DNA from: a virus
Lineage: Duplodnaviria > Caudoviricetes
Strand: one strand, 5' to 3'
IMG/VR virus record: IMGVR_UViG_3300033555_000001
Span: 160,001-224,000 of that record
DNA length: 64,000 bases
Shown: positions 3,387-56,583 of the stretch, piece by piece
Position numbering within the stretch: position 1 is the stretch's first letter
Layout: each line of letters starts with the position of its first letter
Program-made: the position numbers and the translations under genes
Notes under the pieces: model-generated
What the model saw: the letters and a program-made list of their open reading frames with translations, nothing else
Told to the model about the DNA's origin: nothing
The model's database searches: none

Positions 3387-3830
3387 TTACACTGGTAGGC
3401 GGTTGGCAGGAATTGAACCCTTCTGGACTAACCACATGCGATTGCTTTGCGGATTATTTTTAAATCCAAAACGCCGATAGAACTTTTGAAGCTTATTAAC
3501 CTGTTCATCATCTGACATAGCTGAATCAGCATTCACGGCTTGACCAGGGAACGGATCTAAAAAGATAAGCTCGGCTGCCTGTGCTTCTGGCGTTTGCAGA
3601 AATTGTTTCATCAGTTTATCGCCATCACCGTTTCCCGGGTTATTAACCGAAATCATTTGAAGCTCAAGGACCTCTTTACTGTACCCATCAGGAATATACC
3701 CGGCGTGCTCTTCATCTTCAAGATCAGACTTCCAACCGTATTTGACGTATCCTTCAGCGGTTTTAATCTGCGCTTCCGACGGGTTTTCTGAAGATTTAAT
3801 AAAGCCTCTACAGATTTCAAGCAGCTTCAT
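3387..3830 (-). CDS. GNAT-family acetyltransferase-like protein with MKLLE leader
   Basis: Contains PGNGDGDKLMK (GNAT motif A-like) and LQKFYRRFGF (motif B-like). Confidence 0.65.
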   Translation of the reverse strand: MKLLEICRGFIKSSENPSEAQIKTAEGYVKYGWKSDLEDEEHAGYIPDGYSKEVLELQMISVNNPGNGDGDKLMKQFLQTPEAQAAELIFLDPFPGQAVNADSAMSDDEQVNKLQKFYRRFGFKNNPQSNRMWLVQKGSIPANRLPV

Positions 3831-3831
3831 T

Positions 3832-4212
3832 TTACGCCCCAGTACTAAATGACAGCTTTAGTGTTTCGGTAATATTGAGCTCAACGTAGCGCAAGTCAAC
3901 AAAAGCAAAGATCGCGTTGTTATCCGGTGCAGCGTTAACTGACATGTCAATTAGCTGCACGCGCGGATCGTAATCAATTACTTTTTTTAAATCTTCTTTT
4001 ACAATATCAAGGGTCAAATTATCAAGTGGCTGAAATGCCAGTAACGGGATTCGCGTGCCAAAATCAGGCAAGTGCACGCGCTCACCAGGAATTGTGTAAA
4101 TGTGATTTAGTAAATCCTGTTTTACCAGTTCTTGATTTGTGAGCGAAAAGCCACGCTTCTTGTTAGCTAAGTACGAGGCAGTACTGAATCCGCGGTAGAG
4201 TGGTAGAGCCAT
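3832..4212 (-). CDS. Baseplate wedge protein gp25-like
   Basis: VKQDLLNHIYTIPGERVHLPDFGTRIP...YDPRV is the GPW/gp25 signature; baseplate context. Confidence 0.9.
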   Translation of the reverse strand: MALPLYRGFSTASYLANKKRGFSLTNQELVKQDLLNHIYTIPGERVHLPDFGTRIPLLAFQPLDNLTLDIVKEDLKKVIDYDPRVQLIDMSVNAAPDNNAIFAFVDLRYVELNITETLKLSFSTGA

Positions 4213-4225
4213 AAATTTCCTTTAA

Positions 4226-5341
4226 TTAAGCACGCCAATTTTTATTACGAGCAGTCTTTGACGCTGCCCGGGGCCATGGCTCGTGCGATGGAACTGTGCT
4301 TGGGCCTGTCAGGCAGTCTGCTCCAGCAGCTGCTGGGCCGTTAAGATGAATGTTAGAACCAGTACAAAGTACTGCCCCCGCTGAGAGAATATTAAAGCTC
4401 TCAGTAGATTCTAAATTAATGCCACCACCGCTTACTGATAGTTTCCCGCACGATGTCAGCTTAAGCGCGCCAGTGGCGCCAATGTTTACCTCTTTACCGG
4501 CGCTCACATTAAACGATCCAGCAGCAGAAATATTAAAATCACCGCCCGTTGAAAAGCTAATGCTGCCCGCACCATACACATGCACTCGACCGTCCTGATC
4601 CATTTCAATCCATGATTTGCCGTGCGCAGTGCTCACATAAATTCGCTCGTTAGCGTCATCCAAAATAACTTGATGACCTGCCGCGGACTTAATTCGAACA
4701 CGGCCGGTTTCCGGGTTGTCTTGAAAAATTAAAGAGTGCCGGCCTGGTGTTGTGAGTGCATAAGTTTGCGGATCCAGTTGCGCGCGACCATTAAATTCTG
4801 GGTCTTTTAAATTTCGCTGATAGCCCTCTTTACCGTCTTTTTCAGTTTTGTCCTGTGCAACCGCACGTTCGTACGCGCCGCGGGTGCGGGCCTCTGGCGC
4901 ATCAAGCGCGTTATTAAACTGCTGCAGCAAATTGTTGTGTTGCGGCTGCACTGGTTCAAATGTGTCAGAGAGTGGGCTCTTTCCAAGGTCTGCTCTATTT
5001 CGACCAGTTGGCATAGACCTGTTACCATGATCTCTAAAATATGACCCCATGTAAACTCGGCGATTTACGTCACCATACAGGAAACCCACCACGCAAAGCG
5101 CACCTGTCTTTGGCACAGCAAAAAAGCCGTATGCTTGCAGCCCGCTAGTGATTGTGGCTGCAGGACCTGCCGGGTAATCTCTGGTTTGCCCTGCTAGAGG
5201 AGAAGAATAAGTTGCCCACGGCAAATCTATTACGTTGTAGAGCTCGCCATCAATTGCTGGCACGTATATTTTAACTCGACCCATTTGCTGAGGATCATTA
5301 GTGTCTACAACAACACCCTCCATTAATCCAGGAGTGTTCAT
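4226..5341 (-). CDS. Baseplate hub/spike protein gp5-like (OB fold plus beta-helix, no lysozyme domain evident)
   Basis: GVVVDTNDPQQMGRVKIYVP...LPWA is the gp5/VgrG OB-fold motif; C-terminal beta-rich repeats follow. Confidence 0.85.
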   Translation of the reverse strand: MNTPGLMEGVVVDTNDPQQMGRVKIYVPAIDGELYNVIDLPWATYSSPLAGQTRDYPAGPAATITSGLQAYGFFAVPKTGALCVVGFLYGDVNRRVYMGSYFRDHGNRSMPTGRNRADLGKSPLSDTFEPVQPQHNNLLQQFNNALDAPEARTRGAYERAVAQDKTEKDGKEGYQRNLKDPEFNGRAQLDPQTYALTTPGRHSLIFQDNPETGRVRIKSAAGHQVILDDANERIYVSTAHGKSWIEMDQDGRVHVYGAGSISFSTGGDFNISAAGSFNVSAGKEVNIGATGALKLTSCGKLSVSGGGINLESTESFNILSAGAVLCTGSNIHLNGPAAAGADCLTGPSTVPSHEPWPRAASKTARNKNWRA

Positions 5342-7449: not shown

Positions 7450-7450
7450 G

Positions 7451-10854: not shown

Positions 10855-10866
10855 AGCTTCTCCTGA

Positions 10867-11187: not shown

Positions 11188-11188
11188 T

Positions 11189-11533: not shown

Positions 11534-11535
11534 TT

Positions 11536-15315: not shown

Positions 15316-16587
15316 TTACGAGAACGAAACGTTTGTGATCCTGATCCGTGCGTAGTAATCCGCGCTGTTACCAAGCGATGTACCAGCGTTGGTGAACGTA
15401 GCTTTTCCGTACCGGGTCATGAGGCTCACTGCTGGCATGAACGTGTTAGCGTCCATAACAACACCGGTGCTCATCAGTGGAACGTATGGGCAGTAAAAGT
15501 AACCTGTATCCAACTCTGACGAACCGCCTTTGTAGCCGATCAAGATGTCTTCGCCAGTTGTACCAGTAGCCGAACCAGCGCCGCCAGTCAATGTCCAAGC
15601 ATCATTCAGACCCCAGTTGTACGAGTAAACGCGCATCTGGCCATTCAACATACCAACAAGCTTGTTACCGGTAGGATCTTGGAACTGGCCAGAGACCGCT
15701 GGTGCAAACACGGACTTTGAAGCAGATTGCAAGATCGAAGTAACCAAGTGCGAACCAACCAACCAGTTACCAGGTCCACGACGCGTTTTAGCGCCGATTT
15801 CGTTTGCAAGCTTGTTAACCAAAATACCAAGTTCAGCGTAACGATCACCAATGAAGTTCGGCGAGAAACCAGCTGGTGGAGTTGCGAAGTCGAATGTTCC
15901 AACAGTTGCGGCCAGGGCCAACAGGTCTGTCAAGATTTCATTGTCGATTTCGTGAGCGATCTGAGCTGACAAGGCTGCTGTCAATTCATTTTCCAGATCA
16001 AGACCGTGCTGCGAAGTCATGTCCTGAGCTGCTTCCATTGTCCAACGAGCCTGCAACTTACGGGAACCTGCAGTGATTGTTTGCTTCAAGACGCTCAAAC
16101 GCAACGCACGACCGCCGTAGCCTTCGTAATCGCTTGTATTCGCGCCAACACCAGTACTTGTGTTAGCTGTCAGTGCTGGCGGATAACCTGCCGTACCAAC
16201 GTTTGCTGTCGAATAGAAACGCTTCATCTTCGAGTTGTTTGCAAAAACTTCATCACCAGCAGCGATGTCGTTTGAAGGATCGCCGTTTGTGTCGACGGAC
16301 TCAGCAAACGCAAAGCGCAAGCTGTATACCAAGCCAACTGGACCGCTCATTGGCTGTACGCCAACTAGATCGGTTGCAATAGTACCTGGCAAAATACGAC
16401 GAATCATCGGGATAACGATTTTTTGGAAGCCGTCAACAGCGTTAGCCGTTGTTGCAGTTGCGCTTGCGGTTTCCATCATGTACTGCTTCTGATTCTCCAG
16501 AAGAGTAGACACGATTTGTTTCTTCGAACCAGTAAGGCCTTCTAGCAAGGCGGCTTTAGTTTCGATCCAGTTTTCCGTTAGTAACAT
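15316..16587 (-). CDS. Major capsid protein (T4 gp23-like)
   Basis: VGVQPMSGPVGLVYSLR, SRKLQARWTMEAAQD and GYFYCPYVPL motifs. Confidence 0.97.
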   Translation of the reverse strand: MLLTENWIETKAALLEGLTGSKKQIVSTLLENQKQYMMETASATATTANAVDGFQKIVIPMIRRILPGTIATDLVGVQPMSGPVGLVYSLRFAFAESVDTNGDPSNDIAAGDEVFANNSKMKRFYSTANVGTAGYPPALTANTSTGVGANTSDYEGYGGRALRLSVLKQTITAGSRKLQARWTMEAAQDMTSQHGLDLENELTAALSAQIAHEIDNEILTDLLALAATVGTFDFATPPAGFSPNFIGDRYAELGILVNKLANEIGAKTRRGPGNWLVGSHLVTSILQSASKSVFAPAVSGQFQDPTGNKLVGMLNGQMRVYSYNWGLNDAWTLTGGAGSATGTTGEDILIGYKGGSSELDTGYFYCPYVPLMSTGVVMDANTFMPAVSLMTRYGKATFTNAGTSLGNSADYYARIRITNVSFS

Positions 16588-16619: not shown

Positions 16620-17507
16620 TTACTTGCTGATACCTGCGAGGCGCTGCAGATTGGCGATGCTTTCATTAAGCTTCGTTGCTACTGCCGCTGGTTCCAACGG
16701 TGCGTCACCTGTCACGACCGTGGTTTTCTTTTCAACTGTAGACTCACTAAGAGTAGTAGTTGCCGGAGCAGCTACGTCTTCTTTCATGATACGACCGATG
16801 AAGAATTTATATGACTCTTCAAGACGAGCAGTATCGATGTTTTTAAGAACCATCTCCATTTGCTCACGTTTCTTTCCTGATAGATTAGAAAGAATTTTCT
16901 CAAGCTTTACTTCACGTACCATCACGCGATTAGCTTCTTCCGAGTCAGTTAATGCTTGTGCTAGATCTGCAAGTTGTGATTCAGCCACCTGGAGCTTGGA
17001 GCTCACGGAGTCTTCATTAACATGCGCTTTAGCAAATGTGGTTGCGTACGCTTCAAAAATCTGGCGACCAAATTCGTTTTGTTTTACAAGTGCGATATCT
17101 TCCGACAGTTCATCGATTTCGGCGGAGAGGCGAACTTCAAAAAACGCGTCCATTTTGTCGATTAGCTGTTCCATTTCCGATTCAACTTCATCGGCTAATT
17201 TGTACTTTTCTTCAACTAACTTTTCAGCGTACTCAGCTTCAAGGTCGCGGAAACGTTCAATATCAGATTTAAGTTCAGTAACTTCTTTAAGCAAAGCATC
17301 TGCTACAAAGCCATCAACCTTAGTAACCAGTTCATCGCGCTCAGCAAGCCACTGTTCTGCGAGTTCCGAACGAACCGTCAGTGAAACTTCTTCGCGGACT
17401 TGCGTCTTGAAGGATTCAACTGAAGTTGTCCATTGCTCGGAGATTTCAGCTTTAGTTTCTTCGCTAAGCAGCTCAGACTGAAGCAATTTCTGCAGGATTT
17501 CGTCCAT
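16620..17507 (-). CDS. Prohead core scaffolding protein (gp22-like)
   Basis: Acidic coiled coil directly upstream of the major capsid gene; ends NLQRLAGISK. Confidence 0.9.
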   Translation of the reverse strand: MDEILQKLLQSELLSEETKAEISEQWTTSVESFKTQVREEVSLTVRSELAEQWLAERDELVTKVDGFVADALLKEVTELKSDIERFRDLEAEYAEKLVEEKYKLADEVESEMEQLIDKMDAFFEVRLSAEIDELSEDIALVKQNEFGRQIFEAYATTFAKAHVNEDSVSSKLQVAESQLADLAQALTDSEEANRVMVREVKLEKILSNLSGKKREQMEMVLKNIDTARLEESYKFFIGRIMKEDVAAPATTTLSESTVEKKTTVVTGDAPLEPAAVATKLNESIANLQRLAGISK

Positions 17508-17887: not shown

Positions 17888-18430
17888 TTACCACTCACTC
17901 TCTTCGGACCTGTCGATCACCGGTTTGACGAGCCTGACTGCCTTTCTAATAGATGCTCCATCAGGGAAAACAAAGTAAAAGATCCCAAAGTTCTCATGAC
18001 GCTTGTACTCGATGCCAGCGTCTTTAAGTTCAGCCTCTGCTTTTTGAGCATTCAGCCGATCTTCGAAACCAAACTCTGGGCGCTCTGTACTGACGCCACC
18101 CATCTTCACGCCGAGGTGTTTACCTTCAGCAACTTTAGACCGTAGAAATTTTTCAAGGGATGCACCGCCTTCGGCGCGAGCCGCTGCGGTGATGGCTACT
18201 TTATCAGTATCCCACTGCTTTTGCGATTCATCGTCTGCAATCGACGCGGCAACTTTACCAGATTTATTGAACAGCACGTTTATACCGTAGTAGTCCTCTT
18301 GATCGGCTTTGGCCGAGTTATTCTTAACAAGCACCGCAAACGTGGCCCCAATTGCGCCCATGTCGCCCGTACCGCAGTATTTATTTTTCTTGATCGCCTC
18401 GGTAAGTGCGATTAATTCCCTCAATATCAT
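17888..18430 (-). CDS. Hypothetical putative head-internal protein
   Basis: Leader MILRELIALTE; inserted in the head operon. Confidence 0.55.
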   Translation of the reverse strand: MILRELIALTEAIKKNKYCGTGDMGAIGATFAVLVKNNSAKADQEDYYGINVLFNKSGKVAASIADDESQKQWDTDKVAITAAARAEGGASLEKFLRSKVAEGKHLGVKMGGVSTERPEFGFEDRLNAQKAEAELKDAGIEYKRHENFGIFYFVFPDGASIRKAVRLVKPVIDRSEESEW

Positions 18431-19041
18431 TTTCCACCTTTGCGGATGGCCTCTAACAGGGCGTTAATTTCTTTCTTAAAGTACTCTTGAGCCTTTGGAT
18501 CATGCACAACGGCTTCGGCTAAAGTGAGAACTTTCTTTGAACCAAGAGCTTCTGCAACGTAGTTTGGATAGGCGTCTGGCGCGCTTGGTGTGGAAACAAT
18601 GTCCATTGTCACAAATGCAAAGTCTGAAACATTACCACCTTCATTTACCGTACCTGTACCACGGGAGCTCACACCTAGTCTGACTCCACCCTCCATGATG
18701 GCCTTAGCAATATTACCGCATGGCGTATTCAACATCTTCATTTTGCCAACTGCGTTGTTGCCGTCCATACGGATTTCAGTAATGGCGTGCGATACATTTG
18801 CCAGGTTAATGCTTAGAACATCGGGATGGTTTAATTCTCCCAAAATAAAATTGCCCTGTTTAATTTTACTCTGGCATTCGTCAACTGCGCGAGTAATTTG
18901 ATCAACCCCATAAGTTCTTCCGTTACCGTTTTTCATCGCGGCCTGCATCATGATTCCGGACAAAAACATATCGCCACCCACGCGTTTCATTTCTGTCAAA
19001 TTAGTAACATTCGGTGCAAGATATTCTGTCAACAAGATCAT
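18427..19041 (-). CDS. Prohead core protease (gp21-like)
   Basis: GELNHP, GVSSRGTG and DIVSTPSAP motifs. Confidence 0.95.
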   Translation of the reverse strand: MILLTEYLAPNVTNLTEMKRVGGDMFLSGIMMQAAMKNGNGRTYGVDQITRAVDECQSKIKQGNFILGELNHPDVLSINLANVSHAITEIRMDGNNAVGKMKMLNTPCGNIAKAIMEGGVRLGVSSRGTGTVNEGGNVSDFAFVTMDIVSTPSAPDAYPNYVAEALGSKKVLTLAEAVVHDPKAQEYFKKEINALLEAIRKGGK

Positions 19042-27142: not shown

Positions 27143-27415
27143 CTATTTAACTGGGCTCTGCTCACCCCAAATTTCCATTTCTTCTGGTTCACCCGTAACG
27201 ATTAATGTTTTACCGCTTGCTTTTATAATACCATATTCACCATCGTCCCAAATTTCTTGAGGATCGGGAATGATTGTAACTTTACGTGTAATATAGCAAA
27301 ATCCATCTCGGGCTGTTGGAAATTTATTTGAAAAGTACCGCTCATTGTCTCGCTGAGTAATATAAATTTTAGCAGAGGCAGTGCGCGGTTTTTCTAAGAT
27401 TTCTGATAATTTCAC
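27143..27415 (-). CDS. Hypothetical putative head-internal protein
   Basis: Leader MKLSEILE. Confidence 0.5.
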   Translation of the reverse strand: MKLSEILEKPRTASAKIYITQRDNERYFSNKFPTARDGFCYITRKVTIIPDPQEIWDDGEYGIIKASGKTLIVTGEPEEMEIWGEQSPVK

Positions 27416-27876
27416 GGCGACTTCTTCAATGAAGACTCAAAGGTAGAGGCTTCTTCAATTTCAAAGTTAAACGAATTATCAGTTACTCGCTTGACGACGT
27501 AATCACCATCATTTAGCTGCGCGGTCATACTGTTTTCAAGTTGAACTTCAATTGTATCTCCGGAGTACTTAAACGCTGAAATTTTAAGTGGATCCATGTA
27601 GACGGTAAAACCCTCGGCATCAGCCGTTTGATTAGGGCGAATTGGAGCCAGTGTTTTAGAGAGTTCAACCGCGCTAAACGTGCCAAACGGTTTTGATGTT
27701 GTACCAACCACGCTCAAGACCTCGTACGTTACTGGCTTTGTATCCAGTGGGCGAACCATGTAAGTAAGGGTTGATACGTACTTTGAAACTTCGGATTCGT
27801 TATTTGACCACAGGTCTTCTACGGCAACTTTTTCAATTGCCGCTTCAAAGATAGGTTTTAGATCTGATAATTTCAT
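27412..27876 (-). CDS. Hypothetical putative head-internal protein
   Basis: Leader MKLSDLKPIFE; late promoter TAAATA upstream. Confidence 0.55.
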   Translation of the reverse strand: MKLSDLKPIFEAAIEKVAVEDLWSNNESEVSKYVSTLTYMVRPLDTKPVTYEVLSVVGTTSKPFGTFSAVELSKTLAPIRPNQTADAEGFTVYMDPLKISAFKYSGDTIEVQLENSMTAQLNDGDYVVKRVTDNSFNFEIEEASTFESSLKKSP

Positions 27877-38910: not shown

Positions 38911-40791
38911 ATGACTCTGCCTATTACCAAATGTCCTGAAGGAGTTGGATCTATCTACGCCGATGGAACACGCACTGTGGGCGGTGTAGTTCCAGGCGGA
39001 TCAGTCGTTGGTGCCAGCACCGGTAACAGGTACACGCACACAAATCCATACGTGACGCCTGACATCTGCCTTGGCACTTTTAATCTGCTGGACTGTCAAG
39101 ATCTCTACCAGGAGCAATTGGCCGCTGAAAATTTAAATATCAGCGGTGCTCCATTAAACGTCTTTAAACTGCTTGGCGTACACGAGCAGGGAAAATTAAT
39201 CGATTTAGTCGGTGGTGGTCAGGCGCTAAACAGTACGGCACCTGCGTTTGACACCTTAGAATCAAACTGGGTGAGCGACCAGACGGGCATGGGGGTACTG
39301 ACTGCGCCATCATGGATTGGTTATGACTTTGGCACTATTAAGACTTCATTTGGACAAGACACCACTGCACCTGGATCACCAGCCGCCCAGCACATTACCT
39401 CTCTTAGAATAAGTCAGCCATCTAATGGTCGCCGCGCCCTACAAATAAGAGTAGATCGCAGTACTGGTGGCTTTGCGGTGGATCCACTTAAGGTGCAGTA
39501 CACTGGAACCGGTACTGGCTATTTTGCCGATTTTGCGTCAGGTGCCGGTGCCACCCCGGGATCTTTTATGCTCCTGGCTAATACTCCCACAAGCTTTACC
39601 GTTTACTACACCACGGCCACAACGGAGGTGGTAGGCGTGCTTACCGTTGGCGTTAGATTCAATTCACCATACGGTTCTTTTGTTGTACAAGCTGGCGCTG
39701 TGCCCTTTGGTGTTGGCGACATGTTCAGAGTGCCAGTTGAGCTTGAGTGGTACCGAGTTGATGTTGTTAACTTGCCAGACGTTCCAACCCCTGCGTTAAT
39801 TCGTATTAAGCAGTCATCGCCCTCGCGGTACTGGCGTGTTGTGCCAACATCGTTCAGCGGCGTCACGAGCGGTGAGGCGTGGGAAGTTGAGCAATTAGAA
39901 CTCTTTGACTTTCAAGCCACTCGTCTTGACGATGTTCAGGATCAGTTGTTTCTTGAAAACAGGGATCGGGACTATGCTAAACAGTCAGTGCAGTTTAAGG
40001 TAACTTACCAGCCATTTGACTCGCAGTCTGATCTCTCCAAATTCGGCTTTCAAGTATCAGACATTTATTCGTTTACTACTGTATTCAGCACAATGGTGCG
40101 TGCTCTTGGCCGGCCAATTGTAATTGGCGACGTGCTTGAAGTACCAAGTGAAATGCAGTACGATCACAACCTACGGCCAGTCCGAAAATTTCTAACGGTT
40201 ACTGATACTGGCTGGGCCAGTGACGGTTATACCACAAGCTGGCGGCCTATTACCTTTAAATTTCAGGCTGAACAGCTAATCCCAAGCCAAGAAACCAGAG
40301 ATATATTGGGAACGGTAGACACGCAAAAGTACGCCATTGATGACAGCGACTTTTTTGCCGGTATTCAGCAAATTCAAACTGGCCCGCTTACCTCCACCGA
40401 GGCAACAAACGCTGAGGCCGCCCTTGCAACGCCGGAAAAAGGCGAGCAATCACGTGAACTGGCCTCTGGAACAAATAGATTCCAGCGCCCTGGCAGCACA
40501 GATCAAGTAGGCCTCTACGTTGAAGATGGCCTGCCGCCCGGCGGCTTACCGTACACCGAAGCCTTTAAGCTGCCAGATGTAGGTGGTGCAGTTGACGGCC
40601 AGTATTTCAGGCTGAACTACGATCCAAAATTAAATATTGCTTCTCGACTGTACAAATTTAATGGTATTAAAAATACCTGGATGTACGAGGAAACTGACCG
40701 CCGCAGTGAACGCAACAGCATGAAACCATCGCAGCGTGAAGTGTTTAACCAACCTATTGTTGCATCGCTTACCACAAAGAGGATTACATGA
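38911..40791 (+). CDS. Neck protein gp14-like with inserted domains
   Basis: ENLNISG, LFLENRDRDY, DLSKFG and RPIVIGDVLE motifs. Confidence 0.8.
   Translation: MTLPITKCPEGVGSIYADGTRTVGGVVPGGSVVGASTGNRYTHTNPYVTPDICLGTFNLLDCQDLYQEQLAAENLNISGAPLNVFKLLGVHEQGKLIDLVGGGQALNSTAPAFDTLESNWVSDQTGMGVLTAPSWIGYDFGTIKTSFGQDTTAPGSPAAQHITSLRISQPSNGRRALQIRVDRSTGGFAVDPLKVQYTGTGTGYFADFASGAGATPGSFMLLANTPTSFTVYYTTATTEVVGVLTVGVRFNSPYGSFVVQAGAVPFGVGDMFRVPVELEWYRVDVVNLPDVPTPALIRIKQSSPSRYWRVVPTSFSGVTSGEAWEVEQLELFDFQATRLDDVQDQLFLENRDRDYAKQSVQFKVTYQPFDSQSDLSKFGFQVSDIYSFTTVFSTMVRALGRPIVIGDVLEVPSEMQYDHNLRPVRKFLTVTDTGWASDGYTTSWRPITFKFQAEQLIPSQETRDILGTVDTQKYAIDDSDFFAGIQQIQTGPLTSTEATNAEAALATPEKGEQSRELASGTNRFQRPGSTDQVGLYVEDGLPPGGLPYTEAFKLPDVGGAVDGQYFRLNYDPKLNIASRLYKFNGIKNTWMYEETDRRSERNSMKPSQREVFNQPIVASLTTKRIT
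40768..40791. repeat. 24-nt direct repeat (gp14 3' end; second copy at 41232-41255)
   Basis: CTTACCACAAAGAGGATTACATGA vs CTTGCAACCAAGAGGATTACATGA, 21/24 identical. Confidence 0.7.
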
Positions 40792-41222
40792 TCACGTTTA
40801 AGCAGTATATTAATGAGCAGGTAGCTGTTAATGTACCGCGCGTATTGTTTCATGCTGCACCTAGCAAATATAAACAAGATATTTTAAAACAAGGTCTTAA
40901 GCCTAGTAAAGGCGGCACGACGTTTTTAAATAGAACGTATTCAGCACGCGTTCATTTATGTACTAGGATTGAAGCGGCATGGGACTTCACAATGAGCATC
41001 AACGCACGCCGTGAGCAGGGTGAAGATGAAATTGAGTATGACATTTTCCACATAAACGTTGAAGAGCTTCCAGAAAATACTGAATTTTATACAGATCCAG
41101 CGTTTGACCACTTTGGGGTTTGGACTGAAGGTGTAATTCCGGCAACATCAATTGTTAAAGTTACTAAAGTTGATCATGACTGGGAACCGGATGATGATTA
41201 CTACGCTGGAAAAAATGAATAA
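40788..41222 (+). CDS. ADP-ribosyltransferase-fold (Tpt1/DUF952-like) protein with capsid-targeting-like leader
   Basis: MITFKQYINE; VLFHAAP..YKQDILKQGLKP; RVHLCT; GVIPATSI. Confidence 0.6.
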   Translation: MITFKQYINEQVAVNVPRVLFHAAPSKYKQDILKQGLKPSKGGTTFLNRTYSARVHLCTRIEAAWDFTMSINARREQGEDEIEYDIFHINVEELPENTEFYTDPAFDHFGVWTEGVIPATSIVKVTKVDHDWEPDDDYYAGKNE

Positions 41223-41251: not shown

Positions 41252-41695
41252 ATGAGATTAGATGAAATTAAAAAGCAGCTCACCCGCGCAGAAAAAGACG
41301 CCAAGCGAGATGCTGGTAAGAATGAACTGGCCAAGATTGATGCCGCAAACAAAGAAAAAGCGCTTGCAGCCAGGGATGCTAAGTACAACAACGGTGAGGC
41401 TCTTACAATTAAGCTCCCGGTAATTGGATCTAATGGTAAAATTACTACTCAGGAATTTATAATTGATAACTACCTGAAGCAGCGGCACGCCATGCAGGAT
41501 GTGCGGTTAAAGGATTTGAGCAAAGTGCCAGCTCTGCCCGGCGATCGTAAAGAAAAATCTTCATTTATTATTGACATGAATACCAAACACACAGAAGGTT
41601 CAATTGCCGCGTATTTGCACGGGCTGCCAAGTGGCACAAAACGCAAGGCTGGTGCAGAGCCAAACGATTTTAGACGAGAAGCGTACACGGCGTAA
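41252..41695 (+). CDS. Basic hypothetical protein
   Basis: Leader MRLDEIKK. Confidence 0.55.
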   Translation: MRLDEIKKQLTRAEKDAKRDAGKNELAKIDAANKEKALAARDAKYNNGEALTIKLPVIGSNGKITTQEFIIDNYLKQRHAMQDVRLKDLSKVPALPGDRKEKSSFIIDMNTKHTEGSIAAYLHGLPSGTKRKAGAEPNDFRREAYTA

Positions 41696-42611: not shown

Positions 42612-42953
42612 ATGATTAGATTACCGCGATTAGAACTTTTAGCAGAACGGTTAAATCCAACTGATGGGCTGTTTAACGGTACAGGCCCGCAGTACAGGGC
42701 GGTGCTTCAAGCGTTTAAAAATGCCAATGGAATACAGCAAACTACTGATAAGTGGGCTGTCGCAGAAGATCCGTGGGCCGACAGCGTTTACCTTATAGTC
42801 CGGTGTTCCGACAAGAATGAGGTTACTGGTTTTGTATTTTTTAGAAAAGACAAGAGCACTAAAGTAGTACCTAACTTGCCGCCAAAAATGAGACGAGTTG
42901 GCATGGATGATTTGCTTCAGCACCTGACTGAAATTGGTGCTGAATTTAAATGA
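42612..42953 (+). CDS. Hypothetical protein
   Basis: Starts MIRLPRLELLAE; its stop overlaps the next start. Confidence 0.5.
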   Translation: MIRLPRLELLAERLNPTDGLFNGTGPQYRAVLQAFKNANGIQQTTDKWAVAEDPWADSVYLIVRCSDKNEVTGFVFFRKDKSTKVVPNLPPKMRRVGMDDLLQHLTEIGAEFK

Positions 42954-44527
42954 TTACTTTCAAAGAATACTTGCTGGAGAAAGCCTTGAATAGGGGCGTG
43001 TACCTTGACGTGATTAAGAAGCTCGCTGGTAAGGCGCTAGTCGGCCTTGAGATTGAAGCACGTGTGCCACCAGAATCACCGTCGTTTAGGCTGACAAAAC
43101 CGGCAGATCGGCGAACTGAAGATGTGCGCGAGTACAGCACTCTTGCAGATTTTTCAGAGAGCTTTTTAATCTCACCGACAGTTTTACGACAAATTACAGG
43201 CGACTTTGCTGGTTGGAGTGCCGCTCAAGAAGACGACTGGGTTGAGGACAATTGGGAAAGCTATATTGACGCTGATGAAGTTGAAGCAAGCGGAGACGCA
43301 AGAGCAGAGAAAACTGCCAGACGTGCCGCACTGGGCGATCATAAATCTGCAGATCACGGCTGGTCAGAATGGTTTACAACATTTAAAAATGTGACTGATT
43401 TTTTAGACATATACGAGTTAGAGCCAAAACATGGCTGGGTAGAAGACAACAAGTTCTTGGTGTACATGGCACTAGATGCTGCAGATACCGCTGATTCAAG
43501 TTGGGAGTCTACAGCTAATCACTTTGGTGCCTTGATGTCAGCTGCCATTGGCGACAAAGTAACTGTTAAAGATGCACCAGGTGCTGATTACTCCTCTTGG
43601 AAAATTGTACCAGATACAAGCATTACTAATGGCGGGCTTGGCACCAACACTGATGGTGATCTTACTGGCGTTGGAATTGAACTTGTGTCTCCGCCACTTC
43701 CCGTTGATACAGCAATTGATCAGCTCACCACAATCTTTAAGCTCATGACTGATCAGGGGCTGGACACAAACACGAGCACTGGTATCCACATTAATATTTC
43801 TGTTCCTGAGCTGGCTAAAAACCTAGATCCGCTGAAACTGGTCTTGTTTATGGGCGACGAGCACGTGCTGAAAGTGTTTGATAGATCAGCTAATCTCTTT
43901 ACGCGCTCTCAGATCTCGAGCATTATCGATGGCATTCAAATCACAGGCACTGTTCCATCTACAGGTGCTGAGTTAATGGATGCAGCACGCCAGTCACTCA
44001 GCCAGGCAAAGTACCGATCAGTTAACCTAGGGCATGTTGAAAAAGGATATTTGGAATTCAGAGCGTCGGGCGGCGTGAACTACCACAAAAAATTAGACTT
44101 AATAGTCGATACAATCGGCCGTTGGTTAACTGTAGTTGATATTGCTACAGATCCTGCTCTACTTAGAAATGAGTACCTTAAAAAAGTTGCAAAGTTATTA
44201 GGCCGTACTAGCGCTGAAAAAGATAAAGCACAGCACTCTGATGTAAGTTTAAAAGAACTTGTGATTAGTACTGCACGCAATAAAGAGGATGGAGAATCCC
44301 TATGGATTGACTTGCAGCAGCGTTCTGTGGTTGGTTTTGACGCATTAGCTAAATTCGCTATTAACGTTGCAAGAAGCTCGATATCAAAGCCAAGTGTTAA
44401 ACAAATTATGGATGTTAAAAATTTATTTAAGACTCTGTCTGTTACTGTTGCGGATATGGTTGAACAAGATCCAGATGTTGAAGTTCTGTTTAACAGATTC
44501 GCAGAGATGTTTAAACTACAAAAGTAG
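42950..44527 (+). CDS. Putative amidoligase (COOH-NH2 ligase type 2) with capsid-targeting-like leader
   Basis: VGLEIE, WKIVPDTSI, GIELVSPPL, STGIHINIS, KYRSVN and YLEFR motifs; leader MITFKEYLLE. Confidence 0.8.
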   Translation: MITFKEYLLEKALNRGVYLDVIKKLAGKALVGLEIEARVPPESPSFRLTKPADRRTEDVREYSTLADFSESFLISPTVLRQITGDFAGWSAAQEDDWVEDNWESYIDADEVEASGDARAEKTARRAALGDHKSADHGWSEWFTTFKNVTDFLDIYELEPKHGWVEDNKFLVYMALDAADTADSSWESTANHFGALMSAAIGDKVTVKDAPGADYSSWKIVPDTSITNGGLGTNTDGDLTGVGIELVSPPLPVDTAIDQLTTIFKLMTDQGLDTNTSTGIHINISVPELAKNLDPLKLVLFMGDEHVLKVFDRSANLFTRSQISSIIDGIQITGTVPSTGAELMDAARQSLSQAKYRSVNLGHVEKGYLEFRASGGVNYHKKLDLIVDTIGRWLTVVDIATDPALLRNEYLKKVAKLLGRTSAEKDKAQHSDVSLKELVISTARNKEDGESLWIDLQQRSVVGFDALAKFAINVARSSISKPSVKQIMDVKNLFKTLSVTVADMVEQDPDVEVLFNRFAEMFKLQK

Positions 44528-48076: not shown

Positions 48077-48430
48077 ATGACATACATCGCTGAATTAAAT
48101 CGTACACGGCATCTTGCTGGCTTACAGCCGCTGTCAGAGGCTCAAACGTCAAAAATCTCTTCAGAGCTTAATGAAGCGTTTATCGAGCTAGATTGGGCTC
48201 TTGGTAATACGCCTAAAGAAGTTGAAAAGCTCGTTAAAGCAGCTGCAGAAAAAGAAGACTTAAAAGCAGAAATCATCACAATGGACGGCCCGGGCGGTGG
48301 CAACCCGCTTGTAAGATTCTCAGGTAAAAAAGCTAACATTAAGAAGTTTCTAGTAACATATTGCCATGGCGACGAAACTGAAGCAGATTTCATGATGAAT
48401 GACATTGGTCATAAGCAAGGGACTAGATAG
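48077..48430 (+). CDS. Putative head-internal protein with LNRxRxLAG leader
   Basis: MTYIAELNRTRHLAGLQPLSE; late promoter and AAGG Shine-Dalgarno upstream. Confidence 0.6.
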   Translation: MTYIAELNRTRHLAGLQPLSEAQTSKISSELNEAFIELDWALGNTPKEVEKLVKAAAEKEDLKAEIITMDGPGGGNPLVRFSGKKANIKKFLVTYCHGDETEADFMMNDIGHKQGTR

Positions 48431-50524: not shown

Positions 50525-50812
50525 TTGGAGAATAAATTGAATCTTGTTGAAACATTAAACAGAGCACGCGAGCTTGCCGGAATGGAGCCGCTGTCAGAAG
50601 CTGCAGCCAAAAAAATATCTAGCCCGTCATATAAAATTACATGGGAGGGTTATCCAAATAATCCTAAGCCAGAAACTCATGGCATTGAGTATTTTACAGA
50701 TGACCTGGCATTTGACAATGATGATCGTAATAAAATTAAAGATCTCGGAGTTGGCGACAAACATGTTATGGCTGGTCCTATGGACTCCGTCACGGTTGTT
50801 CGGATAAAGTAA
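50525..50812 (+). CDS. Putative head-internal protein with LNRxRxLAG leader
   Basis: ...VETLNRARELAGMEPLSE. Confidence 0.55.
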   Translation: MENKLNLVETLNRARELAGMEPLSEAAAKKISSPSYKITWEGYPNNPKPETHGIEYFTDDLAFDNDDRNKIKDLGVGDKHVMAGPMDSVTVVRIK

Positions 50813-50933: not shown

Positions 50934-51245
50934 ATGAAACTTAGCGAAATTATTGGCGAGTCAGCGGTTAGTTACACGGTTCAGCCGACAAAACGATTTT
51001 GGCTGGTATTTGCCGAGCCCACATCCTTTAAGCAGTTAACACAGGATAAAAAATTCCTGGCGCACGCCGGCCCGCACACTACTTTTTTAGACGTTTCAGA
51101 TGTTGAAGATGTTAAACTGTCTCCTGGCGAAAATAAGTGGAATGCTATGAAGCGGCTTTATAGTAATGACGAAGATGAAATCACTTGCTCCAACTCTGGT
51201 GTTCCAACAGAATGGGTGTGTCTTGCAATCAACGTGTCCATCTAA
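50934..51245 (+). CDS. Putative head-internal protein
   Basis: Leader MKLSEIIGE; late promoter upstream. Confidence 0.55.
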   Translation: MKLSEIIGESAVSYTVQPTKRFWLVFAEPTSFKQLTQDKKFLAHAGPHTTFLDVSDVEDVKLSPGENKWNAMKRLYSNDEDEITCSNSGVPTEWVCLAINVSI

Positions 51246-52537: not shown

Positions 52538-52983
52538 TGGCCGGAACACGCAAAACATTTCAGGGAAGATTTATGCCTAAGAACCCAGGTAAATACTTGG
52601 GCAACGTTGGGAAAATAATTTTTCGATCAGGTTGGGAACTGCGAATGTTTCAGTGGTTTGATGCTACCCCATCTGTTTTACAGTGGGCAAGCGAAGAGTT
52701 TTCAGTTCCATATCTGTCACCACTTGATAACAAAGTGCACCAGTACTATCCGGATGCGTTTGTCATCTATAAAGATAAGTTTGGAAATTTGCAAAAAGAA
52801 ATTATTGAAATTAAACCGTACAAAGAAACAGTGCTTGGCCCAAAATCAACAGAGCGTGACAAGTTAGCGTGGGTAGTTAATCAGGCTAAATGGAAAGCTG
52901 CCGCACTGTTTGCTGAGCAACAGGGCTCTAAGTTCCGAGTAGTAACAGAAAAGTCTATGTTCGCCAATGGAAAAACAAAATGA
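52537..52983 (+). CDS. Head completion nuclease (gp4-like, TnsA-type)
   Basis: FMPKNPGKYLG, FRSGWE, WASEE, YYPD and EIKP motifs. Confidence 0.9.
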   Translation: MAGTRKTFQGRFMPKNPGKYLGNVGKIIFRSGWELRMFQWFDATPSVLQWASEEFSVPYLSPLDNKVHQYYPDAFVIYKDKFGNLQKEIIEIKPYKETVLGPKSTERDKLAWVVNQAKWKAAALFAEQQGSKFRVVTEKSMFANGKTK

Positions 52984-52984
52984 T
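52970..52984. repeat. 15-nt exact direct repeat at the stop/start junction (second copy at 53449-53463)
   Basis: GAAAAACAAAATGAT flanks ORF 52980-53462. Confidence 0.6.
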
Positions 52985-53462
52985 TCTTTTGCGAGAACTG
53001 TTGGGCAGCCCTCTCGAATATACTTGGGTACAGCAACACGATGCTTACTGGAGAGCAGAATTTTTTGTTAATGGAGTTAGTTACTCAGTTATTGCAAGTG
53101 AAGAAAATAATTTTAAAGATGAAGGCGGAAATGATGCCGTGTATTGGGAAATATCGTTTGCGCAAACTGAAAAATCATTGACTGGAACTAAAACTAATTC
53201 TGGTGGAGAGTTACAAGTTTTTTCAACCGTTCAAGCAGCGGTGTTTGATTTCTTAGATCAGAAAAAACCCGATTGGATTGGCATAAGCTCAACTAAAAAA
53301 GAAGAGAACAGATTTAATTTATACTTACGAATGATCAACCGGTTAACGAGTAAACTTAACGGTATGGGTTATTCTTTGCATTCGTGCCCAACTTATGGAG
53401 ACACGTCTATCCAGCAATATCTGGATCAATATGAAACTTATTGCATGAGAAAAACAAAATGA
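52980..53462 (+). CDS. Putative head-internal protein, paralog of 55890
   Basis: Leader MILLRELLG; WEISF...NSGGELQVFSTV. Confidence 0.6.
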   Translation: MILLRELLGSPLEYTWVQQHDAYWRAEFFVNGVSYSVIASEENNFKDEGGNDAVYWEISFAQTEKSLTGTKTNSGGELQVFSTVQAAVFDFLDQKKPDWIGISSTKKEENRFNLYLRMINRLTSKLNGMGYSLHSCPTYGDTSIQQYLDQYETYCMRKTK

Positions 53463-53928: not shown

Positions 53929-54342
53929 ATGCAATTACTTCAAGAATTATTAGGTTTGCTCAAGGGGCAAAAGCAAAAAGGCAGGTTGACTGAAGCAGAA
54001 AAGACGGGCTATCAGATCAAAGTTGATTCAGCCGTTAGAGGAAATTGGAAGGATTCGCATTTGAATGCTGCTTCACTTGACGATATAGCCAGTGCGGTTT
54101 CCGCTTCACCAGTAGATGATCAGGCTCATGACAAATTTAACCTGAGCAAACTTACCACATTAGTTACAGATTTTATTGGTGTTGGGCCTGGTGGTCAAGG
54201 AACATCCTGGGAAGAAATAGACTATGACGTGGTATCCTTACAAGATGATGTGCTGAAAATTAGCTGGAGATTTTCAGGTGTAAAGCAGAGCGACACAGAA
54301 GTGGTAAAAACAGGCATGATTACAATAATGCCAGCTGAATAA
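53929..54342 (+). CDS. Putative head-internal protein
   Basis: Leader MQLLQELLG; enclosed by the 42-nt repeats. Confidence 0.55.
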   Translation: MQLLQELLGLLKGQKQKGRLTEAEKTGYQIKVDSAVRGNWKDSHLNAASLDDIASAVSASPVDDQAHDKFNLSKLTTLVTDFIGVGPGGQGTSWEEIDYDVVSLQDDVLKISWRFSGVKQSDTEVVKTGMITIMPAE

Positions 54343-54500
54343 AATAACATGCGAAAGATCTCTGTAGACGCTGAAGTCAAGAAGATTTAATTTACTAAAC
54401 AGATGTACATTAATTTAACAGATGTACATTAATGTTGCCATTAAATAACTGAGTCCTGTCTAGCCAGACTCTCTAAATACTCGACAACCTGGAGATAGCC

Positions 54501-54929
54501 GTGCAATTACTGCAAGAACTGATGAGCCTTAAGCTTAAGATTGCTGAGCCAAAACCGCGCGATCCTAATCACAAGATTCTTGCTGATAAAAAGAACGCGG
54601 CTGGTGAGCACCGTGATAAGAAGCGCGAAGAACGCAGTGGTATCTTTAAACATAGAAAAACGCAAGAAGACTTGAGCTTAGCCGAAAAGAAACCTGAAGG
54701 CGCGCCTGATTGGCACGACTCTGATGCTCCAGATGCTAATGGCAGGTTTAGAGAGTTAAGCGTAAATGCGCTTGCTGACTGGTTGATCAAAACTAGAAAC
54801 GGTGATATGCGCCGCATTAACGGTTCGTTGCAGCAACAAATAGTTTTCAATCGTAATAAAGACCCGGCGTACGCCTCAAAAATGGAACGCACTCGTGCGG
54901 CCGTAAAGAGCAAGCTCAAAAAGGATTAA
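54501..54929 (+). CDS. Basic putative head-internal protein
   Basis: GTG start; leader MQLLQELMS; late promoter upstream. Confidence 0.55.
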   Translation: MQLLQELMSLKLKIAEPKPRDPNHKILADKKNAAGEHRDKKREERSGIFKHRKTQEDLSLAEKKPEGAPDWHDSDAPDANGRFRELSVNALADWLIKTRNGDMRRINGSLQQQIVFNRNKDPAYASKMERTRAAVKSKLKKD

Positions 54930-55219
54930 TGATGACAGCCCTAGTTCCGTCAGTTCCACTGTACACACTTCATATGTCGGAAGCCGGCCAGATCCGTGCT
55001 ATTCTGACTACTGTAAAATCAATGCTTGACAATCCTAACTTCAGGCAGAATTTGATTAACTTGAACGTGGTGCAGGCAAATATTATAGAGCTGCCATATC
55101 CAATGGATTTAATTGGCCGGTTAGAAAAGCTAAGTGAATCAATTCAAGCATTTGAGACAACCGTTTCAACAATTGAAGATGGTATTCGCGGCTCACTTAA
55201 TTACCCGGTTGTCTCGTAA
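54929..55219 (+). CDS. Hypothetical protein
   Basis: Translationally coupled ORF. Confidence 0.55.
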   Translation: MMTALVPSVPLYTLHMSEAGQIRAILTTVKSMLDNPNFRQNLINLNVVQANIIELPYPMDLIGRLEKLSESIQAFETTVSTIEDGIRGSLNYPVVS

Positions 55220-55893
55220 TGCGGTTTAAAGAATTTCTTGCTGAGATGGCTGCTCCAGCGGAGCAACATCTTTCGTCCGTATATTATCACGGCACTGATG
55301 AAGCCGGTGCACAGGGAATTATGCAGCGTGGAATTGAAGCGGGCGATATTATTTTGCCAACATCAAAAAAGTCGCGCTGCCCAAGTTTAGAACCTGTTCC
55401 CGGTAAAGTGTACATCACGCCAAAAATTGGCTATGCTCAAGTTTACGCAATCGGCGGTGACATGGCTGGTTCAAATTATCGATCAACAGCCGGTCAATCT
55501 ACGCACGGTTATGTTTTTGTAATTAAAGGCAGCCAGTTAAAAGACATACAGCCAGACGAAGATAGTATTGGTGAGATGATTTGGCGGCAATTATATGAGC
55601 CTAAGGACAACAGGTTCTTAAAAACTTATGCCTATATGGCGCAGCAAATTTTAACGCCAAAACAGTTTTTAAAATTAAAAGACGGCGAATACGTAATGTA
55701 CGCGCACGTTGGAAAGAAGCTTTTAGCTAAAATGTCTGATGCGGATAAACTAGAATTCATCAACTTAGGCGCACATATTGCGCATACTGGAAATTTGCAG
55801 CCCGATGAAACCTGGAAAATAGATTTGTCTAAAATGCGAGAAATGAAACGTGACGGCTCTAACTTTTTTGAGTTGGCAGAAAAAGTAAAATGA
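55219..55893 (+). CDS. ADP-ribosyltransferase-fold protein with capsid-targeting-like leader
   Basis: MRFKEFLAE; YYHGT; KVYIT...YAQVYA; GYVFVI. Confidence 0.65.
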   Translation: MRFKEFLAEMAAPAEQHLSSVYYHGTDEAGAQGIMQRGIEAGDIILPTSKKSRCPSLEPVPGKVYITPKIGYAQVYAIGGDMAGSNYRSTAGQSTHGYVFVIKGSQLKDIQPDEDSIGEMIWRQLYEPKDNRFLKTYAYMAQQILTPKQFLKLKDGEYVMYAHVGKKLLAKMSDADKLEFINLGAHIAHTGNLQPDETWKIDLSKMREMKRDGSNFFELAEKVK

Positions 55894-56327
55894 TTACATT
55901 TAAAGAATTTCTGGGCGAGCTCTTGAATCGCAAAGTTGAGTACACGGTAGACCGTGAATCAAACACTAGCTTTCAAACATCTGCCAATATTGGAGATCGC
56001 ACAATTAAGTTCAGTGCGTGGGTAACAGACGAGCCTGATGCGTGGGAGATCTTATTTTCAGAGCGCAACGATAAAATAAGCGGTACTTATTCGGCCACTG
56101 GCAGTGGGAATGAGCTCGAAGTATTCAGCATGGTCAAGGATTCAATTCTTGAACTAATTTCAAAGTACAGCCCTGCAAAAATTACTTTTACCGCTGACAA
56201 AGAGGGCAATAAGCGCGCCAGCGTTTATGATAAGCTTTTAAAAAGATTTAAAGTTCCTGGTTACACTCACAGCAGAGTAGATGGTTCAGGATTTGAGGAA
56301 TTTGTTATTGTGAGAAATGATGATTAA
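55890..56327 (+). CDS. Putative head-internal protein, paralog of 52980
   Basis: MITFKEFLGE; WEILF...ATGSGNELEVFSMV. Confidence 0.6.
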   Translation: MITFKEFLGELLNRKVEYTVDRESNTSFQTSANIGDRTIKFSAWVTDEPDAWEILFSERNDKISGTYSATGSGNELEVFSMVKDSILELISKYSPAKITFTADKEGNKRASVYDKLLKRFKVPGYTHSRVDGSGFEEFVIVRNDD

Positions 56328-56583
56328 AACTGTACCTTCATTCAAGGAATTTTTAATCCTTGAAGACACCGCCGTAGATACTGCGCTGCAAAATAAGTCC
56401 GAGAAGAGCGGAATTAAAAAGAGCATTTTGCGAGCAGTCTACAACCGTGGCCTGGCAGCTTTTAAATCTAGCCACAGACCTGGAACAAACTCAAGTCAGT
56501 GGGCGCACGCTCGAGTCAATAGCTTTATTGATGGCGGCCCAGCCCGTAAATCAGATCAAGATCTTTGGGATAAGCGATCATGA
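56317..56583 (+). CDS. Small basic protein with SFKEFL leader
   Basis: SGIKKSILRAVYNRGLAAF...QWAHARVNSF is a motif I recognise from phage proteins. Confidence 0.6.
   Translation: MMIKTVPSFKEFLILEDTAVDTALQNKSEKSGIKKSILRAVYNRGLAAFKSSHRPGTNSSQWAHARVNSFIDGGPARKSDQDLWDKRS

Follow-up and report, generated by a model that had tools for sequence, protein, structure and literature searches.

Why should a set of otherwise unrelated genes, placed among the late structural genes of a large phage, begin with the same few short peptides? The question is raised by a 64,000-nucleotide stretch of viral DNA (hereafter the window), i.e., bases 160,001-224,000 of the 310,728-bp IMG/VR viral contig IMGVR_UViG_3300033555_000001 (CheckV completeness 87%). 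The best explanation of its source is an uncultivated 311-kb jumbo myophage of the T4 superfamily, from the RsoM2USA/XacN1 clade, with the window representing its late structural region. We think it probable that about 24 leaders encoded in this genome are the propeptides of a T4-type capsid-targeting and processing system, which in this jumbo clade would have been extended to a large and diverse array of leaders and cargo. The mechanism itself, the capsid targeting sequence (CTS) of the T4 internal proteins (IPs), is a known one found in a new clade; what is new is the larger, more varied repertoire and a new class of leader.

Genes are named by window coordinates unless a genome position is stated. 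The ~24 leader genes comprise eight with Type 1 leaders (including the variant 56317 and the doubtful 62668), six, three, three and two in the Type 2 subfamilies 2a to 2d, and two with Type 3 leaders. The 16-17 that fall in the window compare fairly with the figure of about 19 in an initial annotation of this DNA, which lacked 62668 as well as the seven to eight genes outside the window (genome positions 5031, 8688, 9278, 15557, 36499, 72216 and 84993). The N-termini it listed are all present where it placed them. Leader matches all lie 1-5 residues from the start codon, and the leaders are 8-25 residues long.

The same annotation took an [IL]-X-E motif as the unifying mark. The motif is indeed enriched, occurring at residues 4-14 in 84 of 488 genes (17%) as against ~11% at internal offsets; nevertheless, as a bare criterion near the N-terminus it is weak on its own. 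When N-terminal 10-mers are instead compared pairwise with paralogues removed, 13 pairs reach a BLOSUM score of at least 25, versus 0-4 at internal offsets, and 12 of these 13 are leader pairs. The bodies behind the leaders lack detectable relationship, as had been claimed, save for two pairs: 52980 and 55890 are paralogues, and 48077 and 50525 have in common their first ~30 residues only.

Type 1 leaders and the T4 capsid targeting sequence

The CTS of T4 IPI, IPII and IPIII is said to have been described by Mullaney and Black in 1996. The leader sequences given for these proteins in the initial annotation are correct by the T4 genome (NC_000866), in which IPII and IPIII begin with MKTYQEFIAE, IPI with MKTFKEFTST...ITE, and Alt with MELITELFDE. 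Suppressor mapping of the IPIII CTS assigned residues 4 and 7 (Tyr4 and Phe7) to targeting and residues 8 and 10 to processing (PMC9026906; the IPs and their CTS are also reviewed in PMC3012670). The Type 1 leaders, with the consensus M-I-T-F-K-E/Q-F/Y-L/I-x-E, are found in the window in the following genes, given with the number of amino acids (aa) of each product:

40788..41222, plus strand: MITFKQYINE, 144 aa, candidate ADP-ribosyltransferase (ART) fold (motif statistics; Atlas features and structure lead to Arr, Tpt1, DUF952 and PARP clusters)
42950..44527, plus strand: MITFKEYLLE, 525 aa, amidoligase domain (Pfam Amidoligase_2)
55219..55893, plus strand: MRFKEFLAE, 224 aa, candidate ART fold with YYHGT (homologues, AlphaFold2 (AF2), Foldseek, Atlas)
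55890..56327, plus strand: MITFKEFLGE, 145 aa, DUF6934-like domain, paralogue of 52980
56317..56583, plus strand: MMIKTVP-SFKEFLILE, Type 1 variant, 88 aa, DUF5824
62668..63795, plus strand: MSTFQDFLVE, doubtful additional Type 1-like gene, 375 aa, HD and AAA_33/polynucleotide-kinase-like

The invariant positions are F4, F/Y7, L/I8 and E10, with the remainder free to vary, and because these are exactly the positions mapped in T4, we read Type 1 as a capsid targeting sequence. Every trait of a T4-type CTS that can be tested on sequence is found with Type 1, namely the N-terminal position, residues 4 and 7, residues 8 and 10, an accompanying protease and scaffold, and unrelated bodies. At the CTS-equivalent positions Type 2 leaders have aliphatic residues, and Type 3 leaders do not fit. 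In 56317 the leader core is preceded by a 7-residue extension, similar to extensions seen in homologues of 55219.

The pattern F[KQR][EQ][FYW][ILMV].E has only six matches in the six-frame translation of the 310,728-bp genome, and all six lie 2-3 residues after the first start codon of open reading frames (ORFs) of at least 141 aa. Under a wider aromatic pattern there are seven N-terminal matches, where 0.08 are expected (P = 3e-12). Pairwise comparison of the Type 1 leader codons yields 51 synonymous but different pairs versus 42 identical ones: leucine is specified by TTA, CTG, TTG or CTT, and threonine by ACA, ACG or ACT, with the amino acids fixed. Judged from these codons, the conservation acts at the amino-acid level.

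Type 1 leaders in related phages

The Type 1 core is matched 13 times in four related jumbo genomes, in each case 3-5 residues after a start codon, and a reversed-pattern control returned none. An exact DNA pattern for MITFK[EQ][FY]-h-x-E is present in at least 120 IMG/VR stretches, against ~0.2 by chance on a rough estimate. Among the matches listed, 89 sites were read, and complete ORFs (median 166 aa) begin at 76 of them; grouping of the 67 ORFs with 80 aa or more places at least 31 unrelated body families behind the exact Type 1 tag, and the five largest contigs (162-257 kb) all encode a Peptidase_S77 protease.

In a syntenic relative (L017), the amidoligase ortholog keeps the leader MITFKEYLTE, with a body identity of 39%, while the slots of 40788/41252 and of 52980 are occupied by unrelated genes that begin with MKLAELLTE and MITFKEFLFE, respectively. 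By analogy, such slot-wise replacement is the behaviour of T-even IP loci.

The product of 55219 has >190 metagenomic homologues, and the leaders of this family were surveyed in 120 of them, 101 with an identifiable anchor. A leader is present in 95 of the 101; it ends in Glu directly before a conserved Met-Ala-x-Pro in 93 of the 95, with a hydrophobic P3 residue in 90. The leaders themselves are of several kinds: Type 1-like (33), MKLxELFE (11), MR[LF]KQYIxE (9), a 14-residue form (15) and others (27). The same 55219-type body would thus appear to take Type 1 and 2a-like tags interchangeably, the best evidence available that 2a is functionally equivalent to Type 1. The post-leader Met of M-A-x-P is nearly invariant in the family and six homologues are annotated as starting there; an internal start at this Met, giving a leaderless, non-packaged isoform, is conceivable.

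In the cultured relative RsoM2USA, a Ralstonia phage, ten virion gel bands were identified by mass spectrometry (LC-MS/MS) as ORFs 38, 86, 89, 132, 257, 356, 359, 361, 383 and 438 (PMC8504454). Three of these ten proteins carry Type 1 tags, i.e., ORF89 (MKTFKQFLSE), ORF132 (MKTFKQFLNTLME) and ORF438 (MLTFKQYAQPILTE, from its second Met), where the tag is found on ~10 of the 486 genes of this phage with 94% of the genome read (hypergeometric P = 7e-4). A further RsoM2USA ORF, beginning MTFKTYLVGGAVRD, matches a loose pattern without a leader-type Glu boundary; it was read as a chance match and excluded.

The head module and its protease

A T4-type head module lies on the minus strand of the window, with neck and tail genes in the plus-strand half:

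19204..20853, minus strand: portal protein, T4 gp20 type (Portal_T4)
18427..19041, minus strand: prohead protease, T4 gp21 type (Peptidase_S77, E = 6e-23)
16620..17507, minus strand: scaffold protein, 295 aa, recognised by comparison with relatives; it begins MDEILQKLLQSELLSE and ends with the Type 3 motif, ...NLQRLAGISK
15316..16587, minus strand: major capsid protein, Gp23 family (Gp23, E = 3e-90)

The N-terminus of the protease, MILLTE...NLTE, is kept in relatives. The scaffold has a Type 2-like N-terminus and contains 12 [LI]xE sites in its 295 residues, or 4.07 per 100 aa as compared with 0.99 genome-wide, a 4-fold excess which is expected of a protein that gets digested. In the capsid protein all three [LI]xE sites lie within residues 1-31, inside a ~38-aa delta-domain, with none in the other 392 residues; the mature protein (residues 39-423) has none where 3.6 are expected (P = 0.03), a depletion confounded by its low Glu content. 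The initial annotation noted [IL]-X-E in the capsid N-terminus MLLTE as well. This segment belongs to the conserved delta-domain and is probably not the maturation site, which alignment with relatives would likely place at Y-M-M-E/T-A-S-A, at about residue 38, matching M-I-A-E/T in RsoM2USA and M-L-A-E/T in XacN1.

A 297-aa ORF antisense to the scaffold gene (16588-17481, plus strand) is favoured by a longest-ORF gene caller; comparison with relatives identifies it as an artefact. The 180-aa gene after the protease (17888..18430) was considered as the scaffold and rejected; it sits in a hypervariable slot. Between this slot and the scaffold gene lies a gene for a 55-aa protein (MSEAREQLKSMLQDLINDR..., 17663-17830, minus strand) that is kept in most relatives and may correspond to a gp67-like small core protein.

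Type 2 leaders as four subfamilies

Of the three leader types initially proposed, Type 1 stands, with six of six matches N-terminal, and Type 3 is present in both of its genes, whereas Type 2 is too heterogeneous to be one leader. A single Type 2 motif was dropped on account of its weak enrichment and replaced by four tight N-terminal subfamilies. Subfamily 2a, KLS[ED][IL] (consensus MKLSE[IL][IL]xE), has six of its eight six-frame matches directly after a start codon, and a position-specific null predicts 0.016 genes against the 5-6 observed. For 2b (M[IQ]LL[RQ]EL) three of three six-frame matches are N-terminal, as are three of three for 2c (MIL[RK][EQ]L[LI]x[LI]TE) and two of two for 2d (MI[NR]LPRL[QE][IL]LAE). 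Their members in the window, followed by two weak candidates, are:

27143..27415, minus strand: 2a, MKLSEILE, 90 aa; GTG start coupled to the upstream stop
27412..27876, minus strand: 2a variant, MKLSDLKPIFE, 154 aa; CTAAATA 22 nt upstream; repeat D6
50934..51245, plus strand: 2a, MKLSEIIGE, 103 aa; no overlap, as the downstream gene truly begins at 51248
52980..53462, plus strand: 2b, MILLRE-LLG, 160 aa, DUF6934-like; E6 aligns with E10 of its Type 1 paralogue 55890
53929..54342, plus strand: 2b, MQLLQELLG...RLTE, 137 aa; cassette bounded by repeat D8
54501..54929, plus strand: 2b, MQLLQELMS...KIAE, 142 aa; CTAAATA 22 nt upstream
17888..18430, minus strand: 2c, MILRELIALTE, 180 aa; hypervariable slot directly after the protease gene
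27935..28273, minus strand: 2c, MILKQLLQITE, 112 aa; CTAAATA 22 nt upstream
42612..42953, plus strand: 2d, MIRLPRLELLAE, 113 aa
3387..3830, minus strand: weak candidate, MKLLE, 147 aa, GNAT-fold lead
41252..41695, plus strand: weak candidate, MRLDE, 147 aa

The 2d leader of 42612 is also found on an unrelated 197-aa gene at genome position 8688, which is coiled-coil-like with five internal [LI]xE sites. MKLLE (3830) and MRLDE (41252), previously counted as leaders, are singletons and do not rise beyond chance. Judged by their sequences, the Type 2 subfamilies probably act like Type 1 as targeting leaders, with moderate support.

The DUF6934-like domain of 52980 and 55890 has 1,824 homologues, including tandem-domain proteins and proteins of 1,000-1,900 aa. 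Single-domain members begin either with MITFKQFITE followed by IASAKVDYEI or with MKLNE followed by ILNKKVDYEV. When aligned, the short form has its Glu opposite Glu10 of Type 1. In tandem members [LI]xE is kept just before the second repeat, and an MKLxE or LxE-IL segment precedes internal repeats. Word-based homologue searches with 52980 and with 48077 returned the query only.

Type 3 leaders and the scaffold C-terminus

Two genes of the window carry the Type 3 leader, ...LNRxRxLAG[LM]xPLSE:

48077..48430, plus strand: ..ELNRTRHLAGLQPLSE, 117 aa; TATAAATA upstream
50525..50812, plus strand: ..TLNRARELAGMEPLSE, ~91-95 aa; TTG start at 50525 or 50537, uncertain; repeats D4 and D11

The TTG start codon at 50525 has no Shine-Dalgarno sequence, and a terminator hairpin lies directly before it. 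Although grouped initially with the T4 IP-like leaders, Type 3 instead copies the C-terminal motif of the scaffold. This motif, L-x-x-[LM]-[KQR]-R-L-A-G-[IL], is kept at the C-termini of the scaffolds of relatives, with a related form in XacN1 (MMKLAGIKG) and a looser one in RsoM2USA (LARLKELGGVN). In the loci of relatives it occurs 17 times C-terminally, 11 times N-terminally and never internally. The N-terminal copies belong to at least six different small proteins in the slot adjoining the protease, where one relative has four tandem genes beginning MLTLNEALKIAGLP; RsoM2USA ORF380 (MDITRLKHLAGVPLLE) is another N-terminal copy.

Complex prediction for the capsid protein with the 48077 product gave a score of 0.53, against 0.00 for the best control, which is a weak pass: of 78 solved complexes 51 attain this mark, as do 2 of 108 mismatches, and scores of 0.60 or below are more often wrong than right. 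On the leader side the predicted interface involves residues 2-31 only; on the capsid side it involves residues 2-16 (helix of the delta-domain), 57-64 and 199-204. We hypothesise that Type 3 is a copy of a scaffold shell-contact peptide followed by an L-S-E cleavage site, and a different device from the T4 IP-like CTS; its role as a capsid-targeting leader has moderate support.

A more tentative extension, which we regard as possible though short of probable, is a two-address system derived from both ends of the scaffold. Type 1 and 2 leaders would mimic its N-terminal amphipathic helix and so address the core, and Type 3 would be a copy of its C-terminal L-x-R-L-A-G-I that docks on the capsid delta-domain in the manner of encapsulin cargo-loading peptides. 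Were this true, the tags would be a sequence-readable label of the injected effector repertoire, including many anti-defence candidates, in uncultivated phages of the T4 superfamily.

The predicted cargo

The proposal of an enzyme cargo holds for the amidoligase and, as candidates, for the two ART folds, with GNAT remaining a lead. The match of 42950 to Pfam Amidoligase_2 (E = 1.6e-9; 38.4 bits versus a cut-off of 22) is partial, spanning residues 211-300. The AF2 model of 55219, built with 61 homologues, has a predicted local distance difference test (pLDDT) value of 92, with leader residues 1-10 forming a short separate helix at pLDDT 57. Foldseek searches with the leaderless AF2 body returned top PDB matches that all belong to the ART superfamily (Tpt1/KptA, DarT1, PARP10/14 and bacterial ART toxins); these are weak, with a best E of 8.5e-3 and template modelling (TM) scores of 0.2-0.37. 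Invariant residues of the family are H24 and G25, with Y23 and T26 almost invariant (Y-H-G-T). The Atlas places both 55219 and 40788 near DarT, PARP, Arr, Tpt1 and DUF952 clusters (TM 0.59-0.72), and the models support both as candidate ART-fold proteins.

The 3387 product has Atlas TM scores of 0.6-0.7 to GNAT clusters and no Pfam match; its GNAT-like fold is a lead from the Atlas. The 56317 product corresponds to DUF5824. Of the genes beyond the window, the 2a gene at genome position 9278 has a match to an Alt-type ART PHROG (E = 3e-7); BLAST found no pairwise similarity between this gene and T4 Alt, and the PHROG profile alone links them. The gene at genome position 239414 has a weak match to phage protein kinases. 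Several small leader proteins show no recognisable enzyme fold.

Putative promoters, cassettes and repeats

The heptamer CTAAATA occurs 48 times in the genome; in 32 cases a same-strand start follows within 60 nt, most often at a distance of 22-28 nt. It precedes structural operons and also leader genes, some of which are distant from the structural module (Fisher P = 0.003). Examples in the window are:

27898-27904, minus strand: CTAAATA
28295-28301, minus strand: CTAAATA
54473-54479, plus strand: CTAAATA
48034-48041, plus strand: upstream of 48077, with the T4 consensus TATAAATA

A second cluster of leader genes preceded by CTAAATA occupies bases 1-17,000 of the genome (locus L010), with a 2c gene at 5031, a 2d gene at 8688 and 2a genes at 9278 and 15557.

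The cassettes in which leader genes lie have duplications at their borders, either of the 3' ends of core genes or of promoter/ribosome-binding-site segments (repeats D3, D6, D8 and D14), and the direct repeat D14 flanks 40788. At 46409-48527 a second copy (92% identity) of the final 63 nt of the sheath gene follows a cassette made up of the Type 3 gene 48077 and a homing-endonuclease-like gene of 475 aa with a NUMOD3 motif (46562-47989). In L017 the sheath gene is followed directly by the tube gene, with no cassette between.

What the leaders are likely to do

Under the reading that we prefer, a T4-type targeting and processing system, the tagged proteins would be made late in infection alongside the structural proteins. 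The leader would form an amphipathic helix which, through the hydrophobic residues 4 and 7, binds the scaffolding core (or, in the case of Type 3, the capsid protein's N-terminal delta-domain), and the cargo would thereby be built into the prohead. The gp21-type protease would then cut after the Glu of hydrophobic-x-Glu, freeing the mature protein in the head as the scaffold is degraded, and the mature proteins would stay with the DNA and be delivered into the next host. Candidate cargo would include ART-fold enzymes, an amidoligase, a GNAT-like protein, DUF6934-like domains and further proteins without assigned function. For this phage we infer packaging, cleavage, copy number, injection, function and action at the start of infection. 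The assignment as T4 IP-like leaders is well supported for Type 1, by the mapped CTS positions, the protease, the clade-wide conservation and the virion mass spectrometry of a relative, and moderately so for the Type 2 subfamilies.

Several points weigh against this reading. The phage is known as a metagenomic contig alone, and the RsoM2USA virion data are ten gel bands without mapped N-termini. The XacN1 proteome gives no help, since its virion-associated chitinase and lipase, and the neighbouring genes, have no clear leader. Generalised aliphatic patterns for Type 2 as one class are weakly or not enriched (P = 0.009 to 0.1). Depletion of [LI]xE in the cargo bodies, at 21 sites observed versus 28.9 expected, is not significant (P = 0.08). 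Leaders of 5-6 residues, of which MILLRE in 52980 is the example and MKLLE and MRLDE would be others, may represent either a minimal stub that can be cleaved or no more than the beginning of a domain; the short MKLxE form in particular may be a domain part and not a tag, since the same segment also precedes internal DUF6934-like repeats. CTAAATA is likely a late promoter akin to T4 TATAAATA, by analogy alone. Finally, the T4 core proteins gp22, gp67 and gp68 have such leaders and are degraded, not injected, and hence a tag does not prove delivery.

An unlikely alternative is that the leaders, as in gp22, gp67 and gp68, label core or assembly components of the prohead. These would be assembly factors or spacers that are built into the core, then degraded and expelled, and not injected effectors. 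The scaffold itself would fit it, with its Type 2-like start and 4-fold [LI]xE enrichment, as would the slot adjoining the protease (the T4 location of gp67 and gp68), the coiled-coil-like 8688 gene with its five internal sites, and the small leader proteins of no recognisable enzyme fold. However, many tagged bodies are globular enzymes (the amidoligase, the ART folds and the GNAT lead) in which internal [LI]xE sites are scarce; mature RsoM2USA virions are rich in Type 1 proteins of 29-77 kDa; and the CTS proteins of T4, i.e., the IPs and Alt, remain in the head (PMC3012670, PMC9026906).

It is rather improbable that the leaders are instead degrons, or removable inhibitory or regulatory propeptides that keep toxic enzymes (ARTs, for example) under zymogen control, with no part in capsid targeting. 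Such a role would agree with the conserved hydrophobic-x-Glu boundary, with the potentially toxic ART-fold proteins among the cargo and with the six 55219 homologues annotated as starting at the post-leader Met. Yet conservation covers positions 4 and 7, which determine targeting in T4, as well as the cleavage determinants, the model shows the leader as a low-confidence helix, detached and leaving the fold uncovered, and tagged proteins are present in RsoM2USA virions; a shared inhibitory mechanism is also unlikely given that the same tag occurs on at least 31 unrelated families. That the shared 5' ends are DNA-level recombination or translation-initiation modules devoid of peptide function, acting as shuffling joints like T4-type mobile regulatory cassettes, is very improbable: the repeat-bounded cassettes of the leader genes and the modular shuffling documented for T4-type genomes (PMC2839356) speak for it, but the leader codons differ synonymously while the amino acids are fixed, the peptide is conserved across phages whose proteases are merely 45-84% identical, and the boundary Glu is nearly invariant.

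Relation to known packaging systems

As here, the tag of the T4 IPs is N-terminal and 10 residues long, is aromatic at positions 4 and 7, and carries Ile/Leu at 8 and Glu at 10; a gp21-type protease, unrelated mature bodies and variable loci are further shared features. The present phage differs in belonging to a distant jumbo clade (its capsid protein is 32% identical to gp23) and in the number of tagged genes, ~24 and known from genes alone as opposed to 3-4 in T4. Further, the T4 proteins are small and basic, whereas those predicted here are mostly enzyme-sized folds, and several leader subfamilies coexist.

T4 Alt is a packaged and injected RNA polymerase ADP-ribosyltransferase whose propeptide, MELITELFDE, is removed by gp21. 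It resembles the present system as an ART enzyme with an N-terminal propeptide, and the 2a gene 9278 matches an Alt-type PHROG. In contrast, the candidate ART folds 40788 and 55219 would fall on the H-Y-E-like Tpt1/DarT/Arr/PARP side and not in the R-S-E Alt family, and have no BLAST similarity to Alt. The scaffold of P22 has a C-terminal coat-binding peptide and encapsulins use cargo-loading peptides; like these, Type 3 would reuse a scaffold's terminal shell-contact-type motif as a portable address. Unlike them, the peptide stands at the N-terminus of the cargo and at the C-terminus of the scaffold, with a protease site after it, and its binding to the capsid protein is weakly predicted. In phiKZ-like giants, many head-internal ejection proteins are cut after Glu by the prohead protease (SPN3US gp245, phiKZ gp175; PMC5694885, PMC10052503). 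These too are propeptide-directed head proteins processed after Glu, though with another cleavage motif, longer propeptides, no T4-like 10-residue CTS, and capsid and scaffold proteins unrelated in sequence.

Proteins injected with phage DNA act before phage gene expression, which makes them prime candidates for counter-defence or host take-over, and they are hard to find without proteomics. A sequence-readable N-terminal tag would allow likely injected proteins to be listed straight from metagenomic contigs, the tag being conserved from T4 to distant jumbo phages on dozens of unrelated families, such as the ART-fold family of 55219. The tags might also offer natural targeting peptides for loading foreign proteins into large capsids, and the Type 3 motif supplies a concrete hypothesis for the contact of scaffold and cargo with the capsid protein.

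Affiliation of the phage and other features of the window

By capsid protein, the closest cultured phages are Ralstonia RsoM2USA (54% identity) and Xanthomonas XacN1 (50%), followed by the Rak2/121Q group (41%). A search for near-identical DNA with the head genes against GenBank phages found no match, i.e., no GenBank phage is close at the DNA level. Proteases 45-84% identical to that of the window are encoded on 36 IMG/VR contigs, some of 234-350 kb, which points to a sizeable uncultivated clade. The neck and tail genes of the plus-strand half include:

41708-42610, plus strand: gp15-like stabiliser
44627-46471, plus strand: sheath
58168-59712, plus strand: large terminase

Within the tail gene block, a protein with a TnsA-like endonuclease N-terminal domain (52537-52983, plus strand; E = 2.5e-20) is encoded at the same place in L017. 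Direct repeats over gene starts at 31928-33338 (D7, 51 nt, 80% identity; D1, 93 nt, 90% identity) point to genes duplicated in tandem whose 5' regions are conserved, in a context without leaders.

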